50,477 nt of DNA, taken from the IMG/VR virus record IMGVR_UViG_2695420874_000004, one strand, 5' to 3'. The notes under the pieces were generated by a model, which saw only the letters and a list, made by a program, of their open reading frames with translations, did no database searches and was not told the origin of the DNA. Shown here one piece after another: positions 7,645 through 31,638 of this stretch; position 1 is the stretch's first letter, and each line of letters opens with the position of its first letter. The position numbers and the translations under genes are program-made. Source of the stretch: a virus (taxonomy: Duplodnaviria; Heunggongvirae; Uroviricota; Caudoviricetes).

Positions 7645-8817
7645 TTACGCGCTGACCTGGCTGGCAAAATTCACCAGGTACTGATCGGTGATGCGCTGAC
7701 GCAGCATCAGATTTTCAAGTGGCGGCACTGGCGTGTAGTCATAGTCGATGGTGAGTTTTCCGGCTTTCAGCGTGTCTTTGTCGTTCACCGACTCGTCCAG
7801 CCAGCAATCACCACCAATGAGATACCCCTGACTGACCAGGCTGCGCATTTTGGCGCGGATACCTTCGATAATGTCGCGGGCCAGCGACGGGTTCAGCGGT
7901 TTGTCCACCGCCCACATATGCGCTTCTGCCATCGTGTCCATCAGTACCTGCGCCGTGCGGGTGTAGTTTTCGAAGGCAAAGAGCGGGTCATCACTCAGGC
8001 AGCGGGAACCCCAGAAGCGGAAACCGTCTTTGCGGATAAGCGTGGTGACGTCGTTCTGGTTAAGCAGTCCCGCATCGGTTGCCGGGTCCTGCAGATCCCA
8101 GAACACATCTGCAGAAATTCCGGTGACACCGTTCACGCCCACGTTGGACAGGCTTTTGTGCCACCCGGTCTGCTCATCAATTTTGGCGCGCAGACCAAGC
8201 GCACGGGCGGTGGCATATGCCGTTGCTTCGGCATTCAGCACCGTGTCCCAGCCAGTAAAGTCAGGCCAGATCAGCATTCCTTCGCGCTGGCTGAAGTTTT
8301 CACGGTAAGTGATCGCCTCCTGTACCGTCTTGCAGCCATATGCTGACAGGTAGGCAAACCCACGCAGGCTTTGCGCCACACTCAGCAACTCAGTAGCAAC
8401 GGCTTTGTTATCATGACCTGGCACGCCGAGAATGCGCGGTTTAACGCCGAGCTGTGTCTGAGCAGATAACAGGGCTTTCATGCCTGTTTTTTTTCCTTCA
8501 GCGGTCACTGCACCGATGATATTGGTCGTGGTTTCTTCTTCCGTTTCACCCTGCGGCACACGCACAACAACGGTCACGGGTTTTGCCTGGTCAGCGATGG
8601 CGTCCAGCGAACGGGCCAGCGTGCCGGACTCACCCGCTTTACCGCTGGCAGTCAGCACATCAGTGATCAGTACGGGTTTATTAAGAGGAAACATTTTTGC
8701 ATCGGCATCATCGCCCGTGCAGACCATGCCCACGATGGCTGTGCTCACCGTGGTAATGGATCGGGTGCCTTCGTTGACTTCAACAACGCGCACCCCGTGG
8801 TGGTAATCCTGAGCCAT
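7645..8817 (-). CDS. FI: Contractile tail sheath protein (gpFI-like)
   Basis: 390-aa ORF recognised as P2 FI-like sheath protein. Confidence 0.92.
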
Positions 8818-8893
8818 AGTGGCGAACCTCCTGGTTGGATTAGGCTTCGCCCTATGTTGAAGTGATTGTGCCTGACAAACAGCTAAGCGCAGT

Positions 8894-8911
8894 TGTACCG
8901 TTATTCACACA
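8894..8911 (-). promoter_or_regulatory. Ogr-type late promoter dyad (TGT-N12-ACA) upstream of the FI operon
   Basis: TGTACCGTTATTCACACA about 85 bp upstream of the FI start codon; nearly the same sequence recurs in the O/P intergenic region. Confidence 0.45.
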
Positions 8912-8959
8912 AAATGACGGTATTTGTCTGCTTTCAGGGATAATCAAAATAAAGCTGAT

Positions 8960-9526
8960 TCAGGGAGATTCATTGCTCTTATTTGCCGGAAATTTTCGAT
9001 AAATGGTAGAAACGCCTACATCAAAAATCAGTGCAATACGCTGTCTTGATTCTCCGGCCTCGAGTAAACGCCCAATCTGTGCCCACTGTTCGCTGGTCAA
9101 CTTAGGACGGCGTCCACCTACTCTGCCTTTAACACGAGCTGCAGCCAGCCCTGCCCTGGTACGTTCAACTATCAGTTCGCGTTCCATTTCAGCCAGGGCA
9201 CCCATGACATGAAAAAAGAAACGGCCCATTGGGGTACTGGTATCAATACTGTCAGTCAGGCTTCGGAAATTCACGCCACGCTGGCGCAACTCTTCTATCA
9301 GCGTAACAAGATGCCGCATACTGCGCCCCAACCTGTCCAGCTTCCAGACAACCAGCGTGTCTCCTGCCGATAGTGTCCTGAGCAGTTTTTTCAGCCCCGG
9401 TCTGTCGGACTTAGTGCCACTGATTTTGTCCTCAAAAATCCGCTCACATCCCGCGCAGTTCAGTGCATTACGTTGCAAATCGGTGTTCTGGTCATTTGTT
9501 GACACGCGTACATAGCCAATAAGCAT
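8960..9526 (-). CDS. Site-specific DNA invertase, Gin/Cin/Pin/Hin family serine recombinase
   Basis: MLIGYVRVSTNDQNTDLQRNAL...LVVWKLDRLGRSMRHL...GRFFFHVMGALAEMEREL... is near-identical in pattern to Gin/Cin; start trimmed to the Met aligning with Gin. Confidence 0.9.
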   Translation of the reverse strand: MLIGYVRVSTNDQNTDLQRNALNCAGCERIFEDKISGTKSDRPGLKKLLRTLSAGDTLVVWKLDRLGRSMRHLVTLIEELRQRGVNFRSLTDSIDTSTPMGRFFFHVMGALAEMERELIVERTRAGLAAARVKGRVGGRRPKLTSEQWAQIGRLLEAGESRQRIALIFDVGVSTIYRKFPANKSNESP

Positions 9527-9581
9527 GATCATCCCCCTGAATAAAAACCGGAGATGATGCCAGTTAGCCGTAATCTCTGCA

Positions 9582-9607
9582 TTTTCTTAAACGTTGGTTT
9601 GGGAGAA
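9582..9607. repeat. Invertase crossover site (gix/hix-like), left
   Basis: TTTTCTTAAACG TT GGTTTGGGAGAA: 26-bp site with two 12-bp half-sites; its right half is the reverse complement of the left half of the site at 11424..11449. Confidence 0.6.
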
Positions 9608-9943
9608 TTATCTCTGGCTGGCACTGCATCGGGTGTCATTGGTCTGAATGGGTATGTAACGATTCCGTTAATTATTTCAGGTTCCCGGAGAACACTGATT
9701 ATTCAGTGGGGGCAGGCGAGATTTGGTGGGTCTGGTGGTGAAGATGCCGGATATCTTAATGATTTTCCTTTTGCCTTTCCGTCAGCATGTTATGGAATGA
9801 TAGTTAGTCATGTGGGGCATACACCTTCAGGCGCAGGAATCCTGTCGGCTTCTGCAATTACATCAAATCAGTTCCGCGGTTTTTCAAGCATAGCGACTGC
9901 TGCAAACGCTGTATTAGGTCGTTATATCGCTATAGGGGTGTAA
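9608..9943 (+). CDS. Alternative tail-fibre C-terminal segment (promoterless in this orientation; 5' part supplied by H after inversion)
   Basis: ORF begins at the crossover site and ends 1 bp before the opposite-orientation assembly gene; Gly/Ser-rich fibre-tip-like composition. Coordinates approximate. Confidence 0.45.
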   Translation, partial: LSLAGTASGVIGLNGYVTIPLIISGSRRTLIIQWGQARFGGSGGEDAGYLNDFPFAFPSACYGMIVSHVGHTPSGAGILSASAITSNQFRGFSSIATAANAVLGRYIAIGV

Positions 9944-9944
9944 T

Positions 9945-10382
9945 ATGTTTTATAGTCCATCTTTAAACATTTTTGTGAATCCTGCACTTAAGGATGATTA
10001 CATTAATGCAAATTCATGGCCAGATGATGCTCTGGCTGTCAGTGATGATGTTTATAATGAATTTGCAATAAATACGCCCCCAGATGGCAAAATTCGTGTT
10101 GCAGGAGAAAATGGATTACCCACATGGGCACTAATACCTCCACCATCACATGAAGAACTTATTCAACAGGCAGAATCAGAAAGGCAATTATTGCTTAATC
10201 TGGCCAACGAATACATGAACAGTAAACAATGGCCCGGTAAAGCCGCTATTGGTCGTCTGAAAGACGAGGAACTGGCGCAATATAATTTGTGGCTGGATTA
10301 CCTGGACGCACTGGAGCTGGTTGATACCTCCAGTGGGCCAGATATTGAATGGCCTACGCCTCCGGCAGTTCAGGCCAGATGA
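9945..10382 (+). CDS. Alternative tail fibre assembly protein (G'/U'-like)
   Basis: 145-aa ORF; C-terminal ...LWLDYLDALELVDTSSGPDIEWPTPP parallels the C-terminus of the minus-strand assembly protein (...LDYIDAVTATDTSTAPDVIWPELP). Confidence 0.65.
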   Translation: MFYSPSLNIFVNPALKDDYINANSWPDDALAVSDDVYNEFAINTPPDGKIRVAGENGLPTWALIPPPSHEELIQQAESERQLLLNLANEYMNSKQWPGKAAIGRLKDEELAQYNLWLDYLDALELVDTSSGPDIEWPTPPAVQAR

Positions 10383-13988: not shown

Positions 13989-14334
13989 TCTCTGCTCCTG
14001 TTGATACGGAAAGGGACACAGGCACACCGTTATTCCGCCGCCCGGTCAGCTCCACCACCATTGAACCGTCAAAATTGCTGTTGATGGTGATGGAATCCAG
14101 CGTCAGCCGTGGCTCCCAGCGACTCAGTGCCACATACACAGCCGACATGACCTGCAGGCGTAACGCCGGATTTTGTGGCTGATCTATTAAAGCCGACAGC
14201 AGGGAACCATATTCCCGGCGGGCAATGCGGCTACCCTGCGGTGTCAGCAGAATGTCCCGCACCGACTGGCGCAGATGGTCAATATCAGTAACAGCTTTAC
14301 CGCTGGTATTGTTCATCCCGATATAAAGCGTCAT
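13975..14334 (-). CDS. W: Baseplate protein gpW-like
   Basis: 119-aa ORF recognised as P2 W-like. Confidence 0.85.
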   Translation of the reverse strand: MTLYIGMNNTSGKAVTDIDHLRQSVRDILLTPQGSRIARREYGSLLSALIDQPQNPALRLQVMSAVYVALSRWEPRLTLDSITINSNFDGSMVVELTGRRNNGVPVSLSVSTGAENGSD

Positions 14335-14909
14335 ACCGGGCCTCCGGTTGTGTCGCCGCCTTTCAGGACGCCAGTATGCTGATGCGCATCAACCACGATC
14401 CCGTTAGAATTCATTGCACCGCCGCCCTGGGTAACGCCACCATTGATCACCACTTCGCTGTTAATACGCGTGCGGTCAGCCTCCAGCACAAACTCACTGG
14501 TTTTCAGGGTGATGTTGTCGGCAGCCTCAATGACCATGGATTTGATGCCCCTGACATACCAGCGCCCGGTGGCTGGTTCGTATTCAAACCAGCCACCATC
14601 AGGATGTTCTGTCACGCAGGCTTCCGCCGACGTTGACGGCGGTGCGAACTGATTCGAATAGATGGCGGGCAACGCAAAGGCGGTTTCCAGATTGCCACCC
14701 AGGCTGAACAGCACAACCTGCTCGCCCACAGACGGTTTCCACCAGGTGCGCGATTTGCCCGCGCGCAGTGTCAGCCAGTTAATCCAGTTGGTTTCAAGGT
14801 CGCCCGTTTTCACCCGGCAAAGCCAGTTCTCCCGGTCCACCTCGGTGACTACACCAGTGCGGATCAGGTTGGTGATAAGGCGCATGATTTCAGTCAGTTG
14901 TGCATTCAT
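14331..14909 (-). CDS. V: Baseplate spike gpV-like
   Basis: Recognised as P2 V-like; start trimmed to the ATG (MNAQLTEIMRL...) aligning with the P2 V N-terminus. Confidence 0.85.
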   Translation of the reverse strand: MNAQLTEIMRLITNLIRTGVVTEVDRENWLCRVKTGDLETNWINWLTLRAGKSRTWWKPSVGEQVVLFSLGGNLETAFALPAIYSNQFAPPSTSAEACVTEHPDGGWFEYEPATGRWYVRGIKSMVIEAADNITLKTSEFVLEADRTRINSEVVINGGVTQGGGAMNSNGIVVDAHQHTGVLKGGDTTGGPV

Positions 14910-14957
14910 GAGAGCGATCCTTGCACAACCGGGTGGAGTGATGTAATACAGAGCGTA

Positions 14958-14975
14958 TGTATGGAGAACCACACA
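14958..14975 (-). promoter_or_regulatory. Possible Ogr-type late promoter dyad upstream of V
   Basis: TGTATGGAGAACCACACA is a TGT-N12-ACA dyad; spacing to the V start is short, so the assignment is tentative. Confidence 0.3.
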
Positions 14976-15004
14976 AAAGAGAAACAATTTCTAAGGTATT
15001 TAAG

Positions 15005-15871
15005 ATGACACAAATCGCAATTTATGGATTTAATTTCACTAAAAAAATCACATTTGACGGTGGTGAGTTAACTCCTATTTTCAGTTCATGGAGTGAGTTA
15101 AAAAAAAATGGCTGGGCTAATGATAGGTACATCCTCACTGGTTTTTTCAAACCAAACTCGAATAACTACGCCACTCAACAGCAGCTTATTTTTGATTTAC
15201 AAGCAGTTCTTAGTTTTATTGAACAAAAAAATGTAATCATTTCAGGAGAACTTGAAAATGATGAAACCCCTTTCAATTTCAAACCATCTCTACCCAAAAA
15301 GCTTGACAAAAAAAGAGATAAGGGTGCGGGCATTATCATCATGGAAGATTATTTTGCACCAAACAGCCGAGAAAATTTTATTTGCTTAGCCATGGAAAAA
15401 CTAAATAGTAAAGCCATGCTAAAACAAGATGCCTTTAGAACATCATTTTTTAAATCAATGCTAGCTTTCCGCGACTCAATAAATTATATCGACGTCAGAT
15501 ATTATTTATTATTCTCGGCACTAGAAGCACTTTGCAGATTTATTAAAAATGACTACTCCCCTGCCAAAACACCACAAATAATTACTCAGGTTTTAAAAGA
15601 ATATGGTTTTAATGTCGAAAAAACAGGACATACATTAGCTCAAAGAAACATTATGCATTACTGCAAACTCCGTCACTCGCTGTTCCACAATGGTAAATAC
15701 ATTGCCTATCTTGATGAAAAAAACTCAGATGGCACAATTGAAATTCAAGATTACTCATCAAATTTGAATTTACTGGTGCCACTTGTACTAATGAAATTCA
15801 TAGGATTTGATGACAATTATATAAACTGGGACTCATGGATTGATAGGAATCCATTTATCAGTAAAAAGTAA
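15005..15871 (+). CDS. Hypothetical cargo protein (289 aa) in the S/V (P2 orf30) variable locus
   Basis: Clean AT-rich ORF on the opposite strand to the flanking tail genes, with AAGG ribosome-binding-like sequence upstream of the ATG at 15005; no motif I recognise. Confidence 0.7.
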   Translation: MTQIAIYGFNFTKKITFDGGELTPIFSSWSELKKNGWANDRYILTGFFKPNSNNYATQQQLIFDLQAVLSFIEQKNVIISGELENDETPFNFKPSLPKKLDKKRDKGAGIIIMEDYFAPNSRENFICLAMEKLNSKAMLKQDAFRTSFFKSMLAFRDSINYIDVRYYLLFSALEALCRFIKNDYSPAKTPQIITQVLKEYGFNVEKTGHTLAQRNIMHYCKLRHSLFHNGKYIAYLDEKNSDGTIEIQDYSSNLNLLVPLVLMKFIGFDDNYINWDSWIDRNPFISKK

Positions 15872-15897
15872 ACTAAATTTTATAAATGTGGTTTTAT

Positions 15898-16344
15898 TTA
15901 TCTCTGTAACCAATTTAGCAAAGCATCCTGAATGACAGTTTCCACATCATCATTTACGCCTAGGAGACGACGCTCTGCGTAACGGACCTCCGGTCCTCTT
16001 CGACTGATGCGATCACGCAGGCCGTAGTGATGAACGCGGGCAATGCGCTGCACCTTACCTTCAAACTGCACGCTGGCAGAATCGGCGCTGGCGGCAGTTT
16101 TCAGGTATTTTGTGGTGCGCAGCTTTGTAAACATCTGACGTTTGATGCGCCCCTTTTTGCTGCGTGCTGTTACCCGTCGCGGCTCATAACTGCTGCCATC
16201 TGGATTGCGCTGCATCCTGATGTTCTGCTGCTGTGTCCGGCGCAGTTCCTGCGCCAGCTGGCGCATCATGCGGCTTCTTGCGGCTGGCTCCAGATTCGCC
16301 AGCAAGGCACTCAGCCAGTCGTCCACCTTCTGCAATTCAGCCAC
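15898..16344 (-). CDS. S: Tail completion protein gpS-like
   Basis: 148-aa ORF recognised as P2 S-like. Confidence 0.85.
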   Translation of the reverse strand: MAELQKVDDWLSALLANLEPAARSRMMRQLAQELRRTQQQNIRMQRNPDGSSYEPRRVTARSKKGRIKRQMFTKLRTTKYLKTAASADSASVQFEGKVQRIARVHHYGLRDRISRRGPEVRYAERRLLGVNDDVETVIQDALLNWLQR

Positions 16345-16789
16345 GTTTCACCGTCCACATTTCTTCAGGTTCATCAGGTTCCGCTATAGCTTCAACGCTC
16401 GACACACTGCCGTCAGTGCTGACCAGCACACGCTCCGTCAGTTGCAGGTTCAGGCTGATATCACAGACATCGTTGCGCAGAATATCCACCTCAAAGGTGA
16501 ATAGTTTTTCCCGTAACGCCGGGTTATTGATGGCATCGGGCTGGTTATCCCGCAGCCACAGCAAAACCGGGGCCATCAGCAGATTCTGGTCGCCGCTGAA
16601 ATCCTCAATCACTGCGTTCAGGGTGTAACGGTACTCCCACGACATGGAGCTGGTCCCCGTGGCAACCAGCGAACCGTTATCCACAAACAGATGCAGTTTG
16701 TCCGGGTTATTGCGGACATAAGGCACTGCTTTATTAAGGGCGTGGCGCAGGGATTGTGGTTTGTTCACTGTTTCGCTCCTGACACGCAA
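16337..16789 (-). CDS. R: Tail completion protein gpR-like
   Basis: 150-aa ORF recognised as P2 R-like; true start may be a few codons downstream. Confidence 0.8.
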   Translation of the reverse strand: MRVRSETVNKPQSLRHALNKAVPYVRNNPDKLHLFVDNGSLVATGTSSMSWEYRYTLNAVIEDFSGDQNLLMAPVLLWLRDNQPDAINNPALREKLFTFEVDILRNDVCDISLNLQLTERVLVSTDGSVSSVEAIAEPDEPEEMWTVKRG

Positions 16790-24752: not shown

Positions 24753-25442
24753 TCATATGAGACGACCGTCTGGACTTCTGTTACCTAAATGTAATTCACA
24801 GAGTATCCACCTAATCACATCAGGTCGAATTAACCCAGCTACAAAAACCGAATTCCAATTATTTTTACCTTTATGTTTTTCATCCAACAGCAACAACTCG
24901 CGAGTCAACAACTCATATACATCGCTATAAGTAGAAAGACTCTTATTCAGTCCTCTAATAACAAGCTCAGGATATAAGTAAAACGACTCCCATTGTTCAG
25001 ACAAATACCCCTTAATATTATTCTTGATAACAACATTATCAAGATGATACTTAACATTGTTATATTCTGGTGACATTGGGTCAATTATGATTTTTACATC
25101 AATTGTAGGTGTTCGCCCTAATTTAGAAAAATTAGCACATATTAATCTTTGTTTTAATATATTATCAAAATATGGATGCAGCATCCGATGGCCTGCAGAA
25201 TTAGCTATAGTAGTACTTTTGAAAGTATTACATTTGCAAGCAGGAACCAAATTCTTAGTGAATAAAGAAAATTCTGGATAGTTTTCCTTGGGTAAAACAT
25301 GATCCAAAGTCCCGCTATGCATTGAACCACACATTGGACATAGAGAGTTAGAATTAGCTGCTCTTATATCATCAATTATAGATAAACACTTTGCGGGATT
25401 GTTATAATAATATCTCAAAGCTTCAGCAATATTGTTACTCAA
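24753..25442 (-). CDS. HNH endonuclease-like protein (candidate Septu PtuB-like effector)
   Basis: CPMCGSMHSGTLDHVLPKENYPEF...NLVPACKCN has the C-x2-C / DH / N / C-x-C-N arrangement of HNH nucleases; AT-rich; no ATG at the 5' end (probable TTG start). Confidence 0.7.
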   Translation of the reverse strand: MSNNIAEALRYYYNNPAKCLSIIDDIRAANSNSLCPMCGSMHSGTLDHVLPKENYPEFSLFTKNLVPACKCNTFKSTTIANSAGHRMLHPYFDNILKQRLICANFSKLGRTPTIDVKIIIDPMSPEYNNVKYHLDNVVIKNNIKGYLSEQWESFYLYPELVIRGLNKSLSTYSDVYELLTRELLLLDEKHKGKNNWNSVFVAGLIRPDVIRWILCELHLGNRSPDGRLI

Positions 25443-25616
25443 TACGCCACAAGAATTGACATTAAGATACCCTTTATTCTTTATGTACGATCTATATGCA
25501 TTAAGTATAAATGTATCCTGTTCATTCAGAACAGAATGATGTTTTAATCTCTTATTTGCAGATAGTTTTTAAATGCAGAATAATCTTTAAAAACAGGTCT
25601 TTTTAATTTATTCATT

Positions 25617-27266
25617 TCAATTGCCCATTTCATTTCTCAACGCAGTTAATACATTAAGTGATAAGTCCTCGCTATATTTAGATTCAACATCATCCCAAGA
25701 CATATTCTTTGCAATTATATTATTTTTTACTTTATTTAAAATTTGAGTTGGTTCACTCTCACCGAAAACAAAATATGAGATATTTCCTATATTCGCCCCA
25801 AAAGTACTCAATCTCGGTTTTTCGCTAACAATTACCCCATCATCTCGTCTTCTGAGTATTGTCACTTGCTCCTTAAAAACCTCCCGAACAAGATAAACCG
25901 AATGCGTTGCTATGATAGCTGAAGAGCCTGTCTTTTCTAATAAATTATCAAGCAATGCCATAAATTTATTAATAAATGAAGGATGGAGATGTGTTTCTGG
26001 CTCATCTATTAATAGAAGAGTCCCATTCTCAATATACAAACAGACTTGTACACAAAACTTAATAAACGATATTTCCCCACTACTCAAAGGATAACATTTA
26101 TTTTCAATAAGCCTCAAAGGCTCGCCAGAGAGAATAATTTCAGAATATAATGATAGTCTGGATTCTTCGCCTCGAGAATTAAGCTCATTTAATTTAACAA
26201 ATGGTGAATTTTCACCGTTACATTTGATTACTAAATCGTTGTTACTATTTAGAACACTCAGTGCATCAACAAATATATTCCACCTTTGATTATAGCCGAT
26301 AGCGTCGTTACTCCTCGCTAGTTGCACTATTAAATCATTCAAGTTTAATTTGGATTTTGATTCACGATTTAAAGTCAATCTTTTGTACCATATCAATGAT
26401 TTTATTCTTTTATCGGTTGGAAATGAACACTTACTTTCATTTGTTGGAGAAAAAGCAATGAGCCTACTAATTTGAATTCGTTCTTCAATGCTCACACCGT
26501 TAGAATCAACTACAGCCACCAAATTATCCTTTCCTTTAATCGCAGCCAATGCGATTTCTCTAAGCGTTTGGCTTTTTCCTACACCATTCTCGCCTATAAT
26601 TATGGAAATTCTTTTTGGTAAATCATGCTCGTGATCAAAATTAAAAACATAAGATACATCTTCTTCATTAACTTTATTCGAATAGCTAATCTTGATGTGC
26701 TGTGATAAATTACCCAACTCCTCATATTGAATACCGGAAAGAACTGTTCCTGCATTTTTGAAAGTAAAATACGACTCAGACTCTCTAATGAAAGATTTAT
26801 TAAAGATATCAGAAGAGATTGCTTTTTTCCTCAAATTCTCTGCACTAGCGTCACTTTTCTTAGAAACAACATCATTAATGAAATTTAATATATATTTGGA
26901 TTCATTCACCCCAAAAAATCTTACTAGTCTTCGATAATTATTCATATCCTGAAGCATGACAAAATAATCATTAAACCCCTCATCCTTTAAATTAGATTCT
27001 TCCTTTTTCTTCACTCGCCTTATCAGTTCTGCTTTTCCATTTCGTTCCTCCTCTGAATTCAAAAAACCAATATAACCATTCAGTGAAATTATATCCTTAC
27101 ACTCTTTTTTATTAAAAATAGATATTTCGACTCTACTCAAATATCCAAAATCATTCCAATCGCTTCTTGATGGGACTATTTTTATATAATTACCAGAATC
27201 AGATATCTGTTGATTATTTGTAATTAAAAAATATAAACTATAATTTTTATTTTTCTTGACTAACAT
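25617..27266 (-). CDS. ABC/AAA15-type ATPase (candidate Septu PtuA-like) with about 200-aa N-terminal extension
   Basis: Walker A IIIGENGVGKSQTL, ABC-signature-like LSSGE, Walker B/D-loop LLLIDEPETHLHP; AT-rich. Confidence 0.8.
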   Translation of the reverse strand: MLVKKNKNYSLYFLITNNQQISDSGNYIKIVPSRSDWNDFGYLSRVEISIFNKKECKDIISLNGYIGFLNSEEERNGKAELIRRVKKKEESNLKDEGFNDYFVMLQDMNNYRRLVRFFGVNESKYILNFINDVVSKKSDASAENLRKKAISSDIFNKSFIRESESYFTFKNAGTVLSGIQYEELGNLSQHIKISYSNKVNEEDVSYVFNFDHEHDLPKRISIIIGENGVGKSQTLREIALAAIKGKDNLVAVVDSNGVSIEERIQISRLIAFSPTNESKCSFPTDKRIKSLIWYKRLTLNRESKSKLNLNDLIVQLARSNDAIGYNQRWNIFVDALSVLNSNNDLVIKCNGENSPFVKLNELNSRGEESRLSLYSEIILSGEPLRLIENKCYPLSSGEISFIKFCVQVCLYIENGTLLLIDEPETHLHPSFINKFMALLDNLLEKTGSSAIIATHSVYLVREVFKEQVTILRRRDDGVIVSEKPRLSTFGANIGNISYFVFGESEPTQILNKVKNNIIAKNMSWDDVESKYSEDLSLNVLTALRNEMGN

Positions 27267-28145: not shown

Positions 28146-30587
28146 TTAATACAGGTTCCGCCACTTATCATCTTCCCGCAAACGCTGGTTCCGATAGAAG
28201 ATACGCAAGCCTGCTCCTGACGGAATACTGCCACCGCGAAGGAGCAAATCGACTTCTTTCTCGCTGCCATCAAATCCTCTGGACTTCAGTTCATAGACGA
28301 GCTGCTGATGCTGATGATCTGTAATTCGCTGTTTGTAGTCTTTACGCCGTTTCGGTTTCACCAAGCGCAACCTTGCTGCCAGCCCCCGGCGATCTTTTTT
28401 GCTCATACTGTGCAGGTAATCGTGCAATTCCTTGTCATCCATGCGGGTAATGTCCGTTCTGGTGCCCCCATCAGCTGATTTGTCTTTCCCTTGTTGGTAC
28501 AAATTTTCAGCAAGGGGACAGTTATTGCCACGAGTCCAAGGGGCGCAAGCGCCCTGGTCGGCTGCCGCCTCCTGAACGTCAACGGCTTTACGAACCATTT
28601 TCCACTTCACTGCATGAGTGCAGATCTTGCCCTCTGCAATGGGTGACCAGATGCCATAAATACGAATACCGTGATCGCCATAGGCGGTCGGCTCTTCGTT
28701 GATTTCATAAGCGGTTCTGATGAGGTGATATTTACGGGGAACCAGTACGCCGCCCTGCTTCATGATGTAGGTGGCAAAGCAACCAGCATCAGCTGCAGCC
28801 AGAATGGCATCAAGGCGCGGGTTATCCAGTACCGGCGCACCTGCTTTTTTGTCACCCTGTTGCCTTGCCGCCTGACCAGCCAGCAATCGCAGTTCACGGT
28901 AAGCCTGACGCCCCGGAATGCCAAAGAAGCGGAATTGCTGAACACGATGCAGAGACGCCCAGGCATTAACGTATTCAGCGTTATCACGCAGAGATTTACC
29001 CGTTTCCTTGCTGATCTCGCCAGCCAGACCACGCCCGTCAATGTTCTTACTGATATATTTCGCGATGTAGCTTGTCGGCGTTCCTTTACGCGGGTTAATC
29101 AACTCAGACTTAAAGCGCGGCCCAGTGTTATTGCCCAGCTCCTCGCGGTCTTCACGGATGGCAAACTTACGCAGTAATGCAGTGATGGCGCGGCGGTCTT
29201 TTTTGCGCATAAAACACAACAGGTGCCAGTGAACTGTACCGTCATGATGCGGCTCAGCCACCCGCACGCCATACCAGCGCAATCCGGCTTTGTGCATCGC
29301 CTTACGAAATGCAGCAAACATGCCGACCAGATAGTCGCTGCTTTGTCTTACCGTCGAGTTTGTCCAGGTCGGGTTGGGTCTGCCGTTATTGAGCGTGGAA
29401 TGGAAACGCGACGGACAGGTGATAGTGTAGAAAACGGCGCAGTCACTGCGCATTTCCGCGATAAGCTCCAGACCTTTAACACAGGCCATCATCTCATTGC
29501 GGCGATGCGCCGGGTTGCTGCTGCTGGCGTTTACCACATCTTCCATATCCAGCGTGTCGCCGTCTTCGTTCACCAGTTCATGAGAACGGAAAAACTCCAG
29601 CGACTTACGGCGCTGCTCACGTTTATGCATCACGGCTTCATAGCTGACATAGGGGGATGCTTTTTTGCTGACCAGGCAGACAGCACGCAACTGCTCTTCC
29701 CGCCATTCGCAACGCATCTTCCATAATTTCCGATACCACCAGTCGGCACACAACATACGCGCCAGCGAACCCGGAATGAGTTCATAGGGCACGGGTTTAC
29801 GGCGGTTTCTTTTCCGACGGAGTTGCTCAAACGCAGGCGGAATAACATCCAGACGCAGGGTTTCCGCTGCCACCTTTTCCCATGTTTTGCGGATTTCTTC
29901 TGGCTTAACGTCATCGGTGGCATACAAATCACCACAAGCGGCATCAAGGCACATGCTCATATGCGCAGCGACAAGGGTAGACAGGCGCTTCACCTGATCC
30001 TGACTCATTTCAGGCAGGATAAGCAGGCCATCCAGCCCTTCATGGCTTGCCATAAAGCGAAAAGAAGTGGATAGCTGACAGTCGCGGACATGCTCCAGTC
30101 GTTCCAGACATGGCTTAATCGTCTCACGCAAATAGCGGGAATAAGCCTTTGGCCTGCCCAGGCTGCTGAAATATTCAATACGTTGCATCAGCGGCTTGCT
30201 GATATGGGAAGGCTGGGCGTTGACGTCAGCCAGAATGACCATGTCTGGATTAAAACGCTGCTGCTCATGCGCCAGCTTTGCCCGGCTAATGAGCTTATCC
30301 TGCTCCATTTCGCGCTGGACAGGATCACGGGATTCATTAAAGAAATAACGCTCCCAGACCTGATCACTCAGTGCCTCGCGGCGCAGTTGTTCCTGCTCGT
30401 TATCGGCAGCGTACAGAGTGATCAGGTTTGAAAGTGCAGAAACCGGCGCAACTTCCGCCGGGTCCAGATAAGGGTTAATGGCCTTTTTTGGGCTGTTCCA
30501 TGAGAATGCTGCGGCGACCTCGTTAAAGCCGCTGCAGTTGTTCATATCAGCATGGCTCATGCACGCACTCCGTACACGGCGGAACAA
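28146..30587 (-). CDS. A: Replication initiation protein gpA-like (rolling-circle nickase)
   Basis: Large ORF with [15 protein letters not shown] and [12 protein letters not shown] motifs typical of P2 A; exact start uncertain (several Met codons overlap the dam stop). Confidence 0.9.
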
Positions 30588-31414
30588 TCCACGCCACGCG
30601 AAGGATCAAATCCTACCCAGCAGCGCGGCCCGGAAACAGCAATGATTTCTGTTGCAGATTTACTCTCACCAGCTGCCACGCCGATGCTGCGTTTTGCCTT
30701 GATGTAGTGGTGAGTAAAATTGCGATACAGCGAACGGATCAGGGATGTGTCACTGTTAGAAATAATGACCGGATATCCTTCTGATGACCGATGTTCAAGA
30801 ACAGATGCCAGGTGATACTGGTCATCTTCAGTGAAACCATCAGTGTGATAGCCTGAAAACGTACCGTCATAAGGCGGATCGCAATACACCACATCCCCCG
30901 CGTGCAACATCGCCAGCGTTTCATCGAAGCTGGCGCAGATAAACGTTGCCCGCTGGGCTTTTACTGCAAATGTACGAATTTCTTTTTCAGGAAAATACGG
31001 ATTTTTATAATTACCGTAGGGAATGTTGAAATGCCCGCTCTTGTTATAGCGACATAAACCACGGTAACCGTGACGATTGAGATACAGGAAATATATCGCT
31101 TTCATGAAATCAGTAATTTCAGTTGAGTAATTAAACTCCTTCCTTATGTTGTAATAATCCATCTCCCTGTTTGCGTTCTCAAATAAAACTCTGGCGCGAG
31201 ATATAAACGATTCACAATCAGCGGCAACCTTTTTATAGAGGTTGATTAAATCAGGATTAATATCCGCAACCAGATAGCTGGGATAATCCGTCTCCATCAT
31301 CACAGCACAGGAACCCGCGAAAGGTTCAACCAGTCGCGGGCCAGCAGGAAGATGTTTTTTCAGTTCGGACATTATGGCAGTTTTATTTCCCGCCCATTTC
31401 AGGATGGTGCTCAT
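30557..31414 (-). CDS. DNA adenine methyltransferase (Dam family, orphan)
   Basis: LKWAGNK near the N-terminus and DPPY motif; start at ATG overlapping the upstream stop (ATGA). Confidence 0.85.
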
Positions 31415-31638
31415 ACAGCACCTCCGTTGTAATGTTTGCCTTTCAGCTCTGCGATTTCCTGACAGGTAATGCAAAGCTGCACACCCGGAATGGCACGGCG
31501 GCGTGCTGGCGGAATTGGCGCTTCACACTCAATGCAAAGCACGCGGGACACGCCCGGCGTTTTGGCACGGGCAGCACGGATATGGCGTTGGCGTTCTTCT
31601 TCAACGCGCTGCTGTACGAGATCCATTGCATCAGCCAT
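31411..31638 (-). CDS. TraR/DksA-family C4 zinc-finger protein
   Basis: CIECEAPIPPARRRAIPGVQLCITCQ: four-cysteine finger typical of the DksA/TraR family found in P2-like early regions. Confidence 0.7.
   Translation of the reverse strand: MADAMDLVQQRVEEERQRHIRAARAKTPGVSRVLCIECEAPIPPARRRAIPGVQLCITCQEIAELKGKHYNGGAV

Follow-up and report, generated by a model that had tools for sequence, protein, structure and literature searches.

A predicted HEPN protein encoded in the S/V slot of a P2-like prophage, a candidate for a single-gene abortive infection system

When its Rx4-6H motif is intact, a HEPN domain is an RNase that needs no metal and acts as a dimer with a composite active site. Several single-protein HEPN systems are abortive infection anticodon nucleases that remain inactive until a phage cue appears. 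A gene on the + strand of IMG/VR virus record IMGVR_UViG_2695420874_000004 (Caudoviricetes) encodes a protein whose C-terminal half very probably belongs to this superfamily. The whole 50,477 nucleotide (nt) stretch analyzed is termed here the window, the gene at positions 15005–15871 the HEPN gene, and its 288 amino acid (aa) product the window protein. The gene is located between the V and S tail genes of a P2-like prophage. It is proposed, with a rough probability of 0.55, to be a horizontally acquired accessory gene (a ‘moron’) whose two-domain HEPN product lets the lysogen abort infections by other phages.

HepS is encoded by the Gifsy-1 prophage of Salmonella Typhimurium; it is constitutive and stays inactive until a phage protein, the tail-tip protein J, triggers anticodon cleavage (Nature 2026, PMC13043305). 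Like the window protein it is prophage-borne, is the product of a single gene without a partner, and has a HEPN motif (Rx4-6H in HepS, Rx4H in the window protein, which is a predicted nuclease). The HepS mode of action serves as a working model. However HepS is a bare HEPN domain (STM14_3211, catalytic H105, homologues restricted to less than 250 aa) from a lambdoid siphovirus, whereas the window protein has an additional N-terminal alpha/beta domain of ~115 aa and belongs to a P2-like myovirus. The two are set apart here by description.

ApeA is an abortive tRNA anticodon nuclease for which the cue is deoxydinucleotides (bioRxiv 10.64898/2026.01.26.701840). It too is a single polypeptide, in which a regulatory part precedes a C-terminal HEPN domain (RNxxxH motif), and a homologue of ApeA fills the same S/V slot in another P2-like phage (locus L261 of this analysis). 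ApeA is however ~580 aa in length, with three mostly helical domains, and assembles into decameric or dodecameric rings, in contrast to the 288 aa window protein and its alpha/beta N-terminal domain. The PADLOC ApeA model and the Pfam HEPN_Apea model do not match the window protein. A comparison of the family with a single ApeA-like sequence by hhalign is not significant, with the catalytic motifs aligned. When an ApeA alignment is used, the family consensus LRNALFHNG is in register with YRTRNIIVHSG, but the probability is only 0.4%. Membership in the ApeA family is rejected on the basis of the missing model match, the different size and architecture, and this low probability.

DARNA (PD-T7-3) is a single-protein HEPN abortive infection tRNase that responds to single-stranded DNA bound by the phage single-stranded DNA-binding protein (bioRxiv 10.64898/2026.02.22.705581). 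It combines a HEPN domain with a non-catalytic sensor domain, as is proposed for the window protein. The order of the domains is the reverse, i.e. the 456 aa DARNA has HEPN at the N-terminal end and a helical sensor at the C-terminal end, and PADLOC shows no match of the window protein to it. The MAE_18760-type HEPN proteins have an N-terminal domain of ~121 aa that consists mostly of beta-strands (MAE_18760-NTD1; Anantharaman et al. 2013, PMC3710099). This architecture resembles that of the window protein; the comparison is by description and is a lead only. The Pfam MAE_28990/MAE_18760 HEPN model has no match among 63 family members.

The open reading frame (ORF) is listed at positions 14957–15871 of the + strand and has 304 aa when counted from its first ATG. 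The Met codon at position 15005, however, is the start in all 34 homologues. It is also the start of WP_001579974.1, the RefSeq product annotated by the Prokaryotic Genome Annotation Pipeline (PGAP) in a 99.8% identical copy in E. coli MEI005. Position 15005 is thus taken as the start, which gives a predicted product of 288 aa plus a stop codon and accounts for the 289 triplets counted in an earlier note made from the sequence of the window. The sequence AAGG is found ~8 nt 5′ of this ATG. At ~33% GC (guanine plus cytosine) a stop is expected every ~13 codons and, by our own arithmetic, the chance of 304 open codons is ~1e-10. A run this improbable is not a chance reading frame. PHROG 4373, a family annotated as ‘unknown function’, matches the protein from end to end (E-value = 1.7e-142). 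The ratio of nonsynonymous to synonymous changes (dN/dS, Nei-Gojobori) is 0.12–0.15 for informative pairs of the family. The HEPN gene is real and under purifying selection. It is also much richer in AT than its neighbors, as the earlier note had observed, with a GC fraction of 0.33–0.35 over positions 14950–15999 compared with 0.55–0.60 on either side.

The AlphaFold2 model of the window protein, made with the 34-sequence alignment, has a mean predicted local distance difference test score (pLDDT) of 89.9 and a predicted template modeling score (pTM) of 0.90. It displays two domains. The N-terminal alpha/beta domain is at about aa positions 1–115 (nt positions 15005–15349, + strand), with strands at 4–7, 15–17, 20–24, 41–50, 78–82 and 99–103 and helices at 29–34 and 58–73. 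Whole-protein searches of Pfam, PDB and BFVD did not detect a relative of this domain. The residues conserved in it among 63 sequences are structural (G8, P24, L44, F71 and V77), a pattern more suggestive of a module for regulation or sensing than of a second enzyme.

The C-terminal helical domain is at about aa positions 121–265 (nt positions 15365–15799, + strand). It contains the predicted catalytic motif, R223-H-S-L-F-H228, at nt positions 15671–15688. The earlier note had recognized no motif in this protein; the HEPN Rx4H motif is nevertheless present. The family consensus LRNALFHNG is a textbook Rx4H with the usual polar residue after the arginine (Anantharaman et al. 2013, PMC3710099), here R223-[N/H]-x-L-F-H228. 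In the 34 sequences no variation is seen at D163, Y166, F170, S171, E174, R178, R223, L226, F227 and H228, nor in a C-terminal FDD..INW patch. In the wider set of 63 sequences, with identities as low as 19%, conservation of E174, R178, R223, F227 and H228 is still at least 90%. E174 and R178 (LE..L.R, nt positions 15524–15538, + strand) are on the long helix that precedes the motif helix and are probably additional active-site or dimer-interface residues. In the model the motif is at the end of helix 216–229, and a beta-hairpin is inserted ahead of the last helix. The predicted four-helix up-down bundle can be superposed on solved HEPN domains.

A significant match of the window protein to a curated HEPN model was not found in Pfam or NCBIfam. 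Pfam HEPN_Apea gives sub-threshold matches in only 3 of the 63 relatives, the best with an E-value of 0.005. Searches of PDB sequences with the single sequence and with a 63-sequence profile gave nothing meaningful, and Foldseek shows no significant match in PDB or BFVD. The sensitive homology and structure searches proposed in the earlier note thus yielded a HEPN motif and a HEPN-like fold, but no significant library, PDB-sequence or Foldseek match. The support for the HEPN assignment is real but modest. Taken together, we consider it very probable that the C-terminal domain is a divergent member of the HEPN superfamily that falls in no described family. The protein could instead lack catalytic activity, be only HEPN-like or simply helical, and serve lysogenic conversion in some other way, the HEPN label being an over-interpretation. 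Conservation of both the R and the H of the motif argues against this and makes it rather improbable.

The left flank of the HEPN gene is gene V, which encodes the baseplate spike (nt positions 14334–14915, − strand; PF04717, Phage_base_V, E-value = 7e-18, and PF18946, the GpV Apex motif). The right flank is gene S, for tail completion (nt positions 15898–16344, − strand; PF05069, Phage_tail_S, E-value = 1e-42). The only flanking space is 89 nt upstream and 26 nt downstream of the HEPN gene. The other tail, baseplate and lysis genes are on the − strand, as they are in a 95%–96% identical PGAP-annotated E. coli prophage. The HEPN gene therefore interrupts a run of − strand genes, as previously described. 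It is also at the place of P2 orf30, and here the flank matches and the P2 record agree with the earlier description. The P2 record places orf30 in the S–V interval, antisense to both genes, with the terminator of the O operon on one side and the activator site of the V promoter on the other. P2 orf30 is non-essential. The HEPN gene has exactly the same slot and orientation and, as is the case for orf30, old, tin and fun(Z) of P2, is AT-rich, non-essential and found in a fixed slot between operons. Homology with P2 Orf30, which looks like a membrane protein, is rejected (BLASTP E-value = 32).

The gene is accessory. A megablast search of 50,697 phage records with nt positions 14300–16400 matched 41 records, and in these only the flanks are present, with ~920 bp absent between them. 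The junction was also compared in the 80 IMG/VR contigs with the most similar gpS. Seventy-five of these have an S–V gap of 78 nt that contains no gene, three carry the HEPN gene at 99%–100% identity, and two have other cargo between S and V. It is on the basis of the 75 empty junctions that the gene is considered accessory, which bears out the earlier view of a single-gene insertion. The same observation disposes of the suggestion that this is a structural or morphogenetic gene of the tail cluster conserved in all relatives. Only its position among tail genes would favor such a role, while it is on the opposite strand, has a foreign composition and is replaced by unrelated genes in other relatives. 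With the gene missing from 75 of the 80 closest relatives, that role is effectively refuted.

The unit that is exchanged is larger than the gene. Homology to relatives with an empty slot stops at position 14910 and returns at about position 15940 (blastn breakpoints with L019, L047, L091, L179 and L260, together with the GC profile). These relatives have ~111 bp in place of the AT-rich module at positions 14910–15940. The insert had earlier been given as positions 14910–15871; the left edge holds, and the right edge extends to position 15940. The module includes the V promoter region and the last ~14 codons of S. When cargo is exchanged, an essential tail protein thus acquires a different C-terminus as well. 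The C-terminal ~14 codons of S (window positions 15898–15940) differ between loci with different cargo, e.g. L016, L047, L091, L258 and L177.

A wider survey used gpS of P2, RE2010 and Klebsiella phage ST437-OXA245phi4.1 as queries and gave 248 non-identical S-to-V regions, 182 of them empty and 66 occupied. The choice of queries and the use of the best 80 loci per scan bias these counts, which are thus not population frequencies. The inserts are 0.5–2.0 kb in length, have a GC fraction of 0.30–0.37 and are, with few exceptions, antisense to S and V. The cargo falls into at least 17 unrelated families, and the alternative cargo that the earlier note had proposed to look for at this junction is therefore plentiful. 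A P2 Orf30-like protein, which looks membrane-bound, is found in 23 regions and the family of the window protein in 12. These are followed by a PDC-S31-like protein (4 regions), a DUF6216 membrane protein (3 regions), PDC-S59 (2 regions, E-value = 2e-197), Septu PtuA and PtuB (2 regions and one degraded copy, E-values = 1e-140 and 5e-100) and an ApeA homologue (1 region, PADLOC E-value = 1e-10). Other families without any match occupy several regions. The ApeA, Septu, PDC-S59 and PDC-S31 cargoes are in IMG/VR P2-like contigs L261, L217/L256, L091/L285 and L267. Septu and ApeA are named defense-system models, while PDC-S59 and PDC-S31 are defense candidates.

Matches to known defense systems are thus among the inserts of the S/V slot, which is a cargo hotspot, and the HEPN gene has all the properties of its cargo, i.e. 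it is between S and V, antisense, AT-rich, patchy in occurrence and replaceable. A survey reports that defense systems are present within the P2 tail genes (Nucleic Acids Research 2026, PMC13586616), and the best-known studies of P2 hotspots cover the Q/A and Z/fun loci only. About a dozen unannotated single genes are also found in the slot, and several of them resemble small membrane proteins. A 278 aa cargo protein in L122, L125 and L176 has an Rx4H-like motif of its own, RNILTH.

The slot has a constant feature. A TGT-N12-ACA box is read from the sequence at positions 14958–14975 (− strand). The activator (Ogr-type) site annotated for the late V promoter of P2 has this same motif. In 20 of the 21 junctions examined, filled or empty (e.g. 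L019, L047, L091, L258 and L177), such a box precedes the V ATG by 58–77 nt. Because it is kept whether the slot is full or empty, S/V cargo always has the end of a late operon on one side and, on the other, the activator-dependent promoter of the following late operon. From the end of the box to the ATG of the HEPN gene there are 30 nt in the window and 12 nt in RE2010-type copies. Every S/V cargo gene begins within a few tens of nt of such a box. The promoters of the cargo genes may overlap the late-activator site. Weak -10-like hexamers, picked by hand (TATGGA, TATGAT and TATGGT), overlap the left half of the box in the window. A scan gave no terminator in the stretch between the HEPN gene and S, which are convergent.

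It can be speculated that binding of the activator during lytic growth occludes the HEPN gene promoter and so spares the prophage's own cycle; as the promoter scan gave no consensus promoter, the idea is put forward as a hypothesis only. HepS deals with self-targeting by way of a ‘silent’ variant of the trigger, whereas the window prophage would, if this is true, use promoter architecture. The extended proposal is that of an undescribed single-protein HEPN immunity family in which the N-terminal domain is a new infection sensor and a promoter that overlaps the Ogr-type box switches the nuclease off in the late lytic phase. As a whole it is unlikely.

The proximity of the box to the gene could be read differently. 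With the ATG 30 nt from a late-activator box, coupling to the lytic program is conceivable, and the protein might be an enzyme that benefits the phage in its own cycle, either by RNA processing or as a counter-defense (e.g. a HEPN that degrades cyclic-oligonucleotide signals; some HEPN domains do deplete cyclic oligoadenylate signals). The gene is, however, antisense to both late operons and missing from about three quarters of related phages. In addition, the slot also holds cargoes that match the Septu and ApeA models, and the family is also present on chromosomal islands without phage genes. A part in the phage's own cycle is therefore considered very improbable.

The HEPN gene is present in 24 of 5,426 complete E. 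coli genomes at 99.7%–99.8% identity and adjoins S in every match listed. Twenty-three of these copies are intact and one, in E. coli strain 61 (NZ_CP048326.1, positions 1553039–1554775), is split by IS1. The 90% identity cluster has 306 sequences, named from Salmonella enterica and ‘MULTISPECIES’. An exhaustive hidden Markov model search of 1.84 billion cluster representatives gave only 194 relatives. Nearly all are ~280 aa in length with the same architecture, and full-length homologues reach down to 19%–29% identity. One distant member (P0213, 379 aa, metagenomic) appears to continue beyond its HEPN part into a C-terminal extension with GIY-YIG-like motifs (GVYMIV...VLYIGKAG), which may be a rare fusion or an assembly artefact. 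No mention of WP_001579974 was found in the literature.

Copies in the S/V slot are found in three genera of Peduoviridae: a Wadgaonvirus-like phage, to which the window belongs (99% identity), Gegevirus ST437-OXA245phi4.1 (57%) and Felsduovirus RE2010 (35%). In a crude neighbor-joining tree two clades from the P2 slot are split by a large clade from other contexts, which suggests repeated capture or an exchange between mobile elements. A pattern scan of 185,579 species-representative genomes gave 26 loci in Gammaproteobacteria, Betaproteobacteria, Desulfobacterota and Fodinibius. None of the 26 has P2 flanks, and the GC content of the gene is usually below that of its surroundings. Other homologues are on islands with integrases or resolvases (Vibrio, Rahnella, Pseudoalteromonas), on one Vibrio plasmid, at a prophage edge adjoining a DNA invertase (Klebsiella), and as a single-gene insertion among housekeeping genes (Acinetobacter). 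In further contexts the neighbors are SIR2_2 and a ParA-like ATPase, a GmrSD_N gene, or PIN and other toxin-antitoxin-type genes.

In Halomonas (L004–L006, gene at positions 8001–8858) a homologue with 41% identity adjoins a divergent intI-like integrase (PF13495 and PF00589) and is the first gene of the series. It is followed by GTTCTAAC...GTTAGC, an inverted core, and by co-oriented small genes for a cupin, GNAT acetyltransferases and a Vgb lyase. The locus looks like a chromosomal integron cassette. This position, first in an integron-like array, would fit a selfish toxin or a stress-dormancy module, in which the HEPN RNase retains the mobile element or arrests growth without sensing phage. 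Such a role has been proposed for integron HEPN cassettes (Anantharaman et al. 2013, PMC3710099), and the copy broken by IS1 is compatible with a fitness cost. Yet neither an antitoxin partner (HEPN-MNT or other) nor any conserved neighboring gene is found in any context examined. The 89 nt upstream and 26 nt downstream in the window leave no room for an antitoxin gene, and no tandem repeats or Rfam RNA point to a type III antitoxin. A lone toxin without an antidote cannot work as an addiction module. A toxin or dormancy role is thus unlikely.

An abortive infection or exclusion function, which the earlier note had suggested for insertions at such slots, would agree with the invariant Rx4H motif and the HEPN-like fold. 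The analogy with single-protein HEPN systems and the nature of the S/V hotspot are the reasons for proposing a defense-type mechanism. From what is observed, i.e. a real and accessory gene with its motif, its predicted fold and its neighborhood, we infer every step of this mechanism. The protein would be made in the lysogen from its own promoter, which would face away from the late operons of the phage. By analogy with HepS, ApeA and DARNA it would be kept inactive; it would probably form a HEPN dimer or a larger oligomer, with the N-terminal domain as the gate. The inhibition would be lifted by a product of a heterologous phage that infects the cell. The composite Rx4H site would then cleave RNA, most likely tRNA anticodon loops or mRNA. 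Translation would halt and the infection abort, and clonal lysogens and the resident prophage would be protected.

Several observations weigh against this defense role. Pfam, NCBIfam and PADLOC give zero matches to the window protein, which is thus not recognized as a HEPN or a defense protein, and the hhalign probability with the ApeA alignment is as low as given above. A consensus sigma-70 promoter was not found upstream of the HEPN gene, and AT-rich DNA of this kind may be silenced by H-NS. Many S/V cargoes are membrane proteins or unknowns, and residence in the slot does not therefore prove defense.

Elsewhere in the window, two AT-rich genes of 229 aa and 549 aa are at positions 24753–27266 (− strand), in the classic portal/replication (old/tin) hotspot. 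They match the PADLOC candidate PDC-M01 (PDC-M01B, E-value = 9e-32; PDC-M01A, an AAA_21/AAA_15 ATPase, E-value = 2e-55). The E. coli MEI005 prophage, otherwise 95%–96% identical, has an ‘ABC-three component system’ in place of PDC-M01. The stretch at positions 8818–10361 is not common to the sibling E. coli prophage. It includes an ORF at positions 8960–9532 (− strand) for a 190 aa serine DNA invertase (Resolvase and HTH_7) beside tail-fiber genes, which probably marks a tail-fiber inversion switch in the Z/fun slot. A D12-class N6-adenine DNA methyltransferase is encoded at positions 30557–31474 (− strand) in the early region of the prophage (PADLOC ‘orphan MTase’, E-value = 2e-110).

Specialists will find the logic of such defense familiar, but neither the family and its N-terminal domain nor the wealth of cargo in the S/V slot is catalogued. 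The HEPN gene is small and without a partner, and its role is thus easy to test. If the role is confirmed, an unannotated HEPN family, without a Pfam, NCBIfam or PADLOC entry, would join the prophage-borne abortive infection nucleases, and the N-terminal domain would be a new case of infection sensing by a HEPN nuclease. The S/V (orf30) junction, which has received little study in P2-like phages, would then be a true defense hotspot, and the dozen or so unannotated single-gene cargoes of the slot would become candidates as well.
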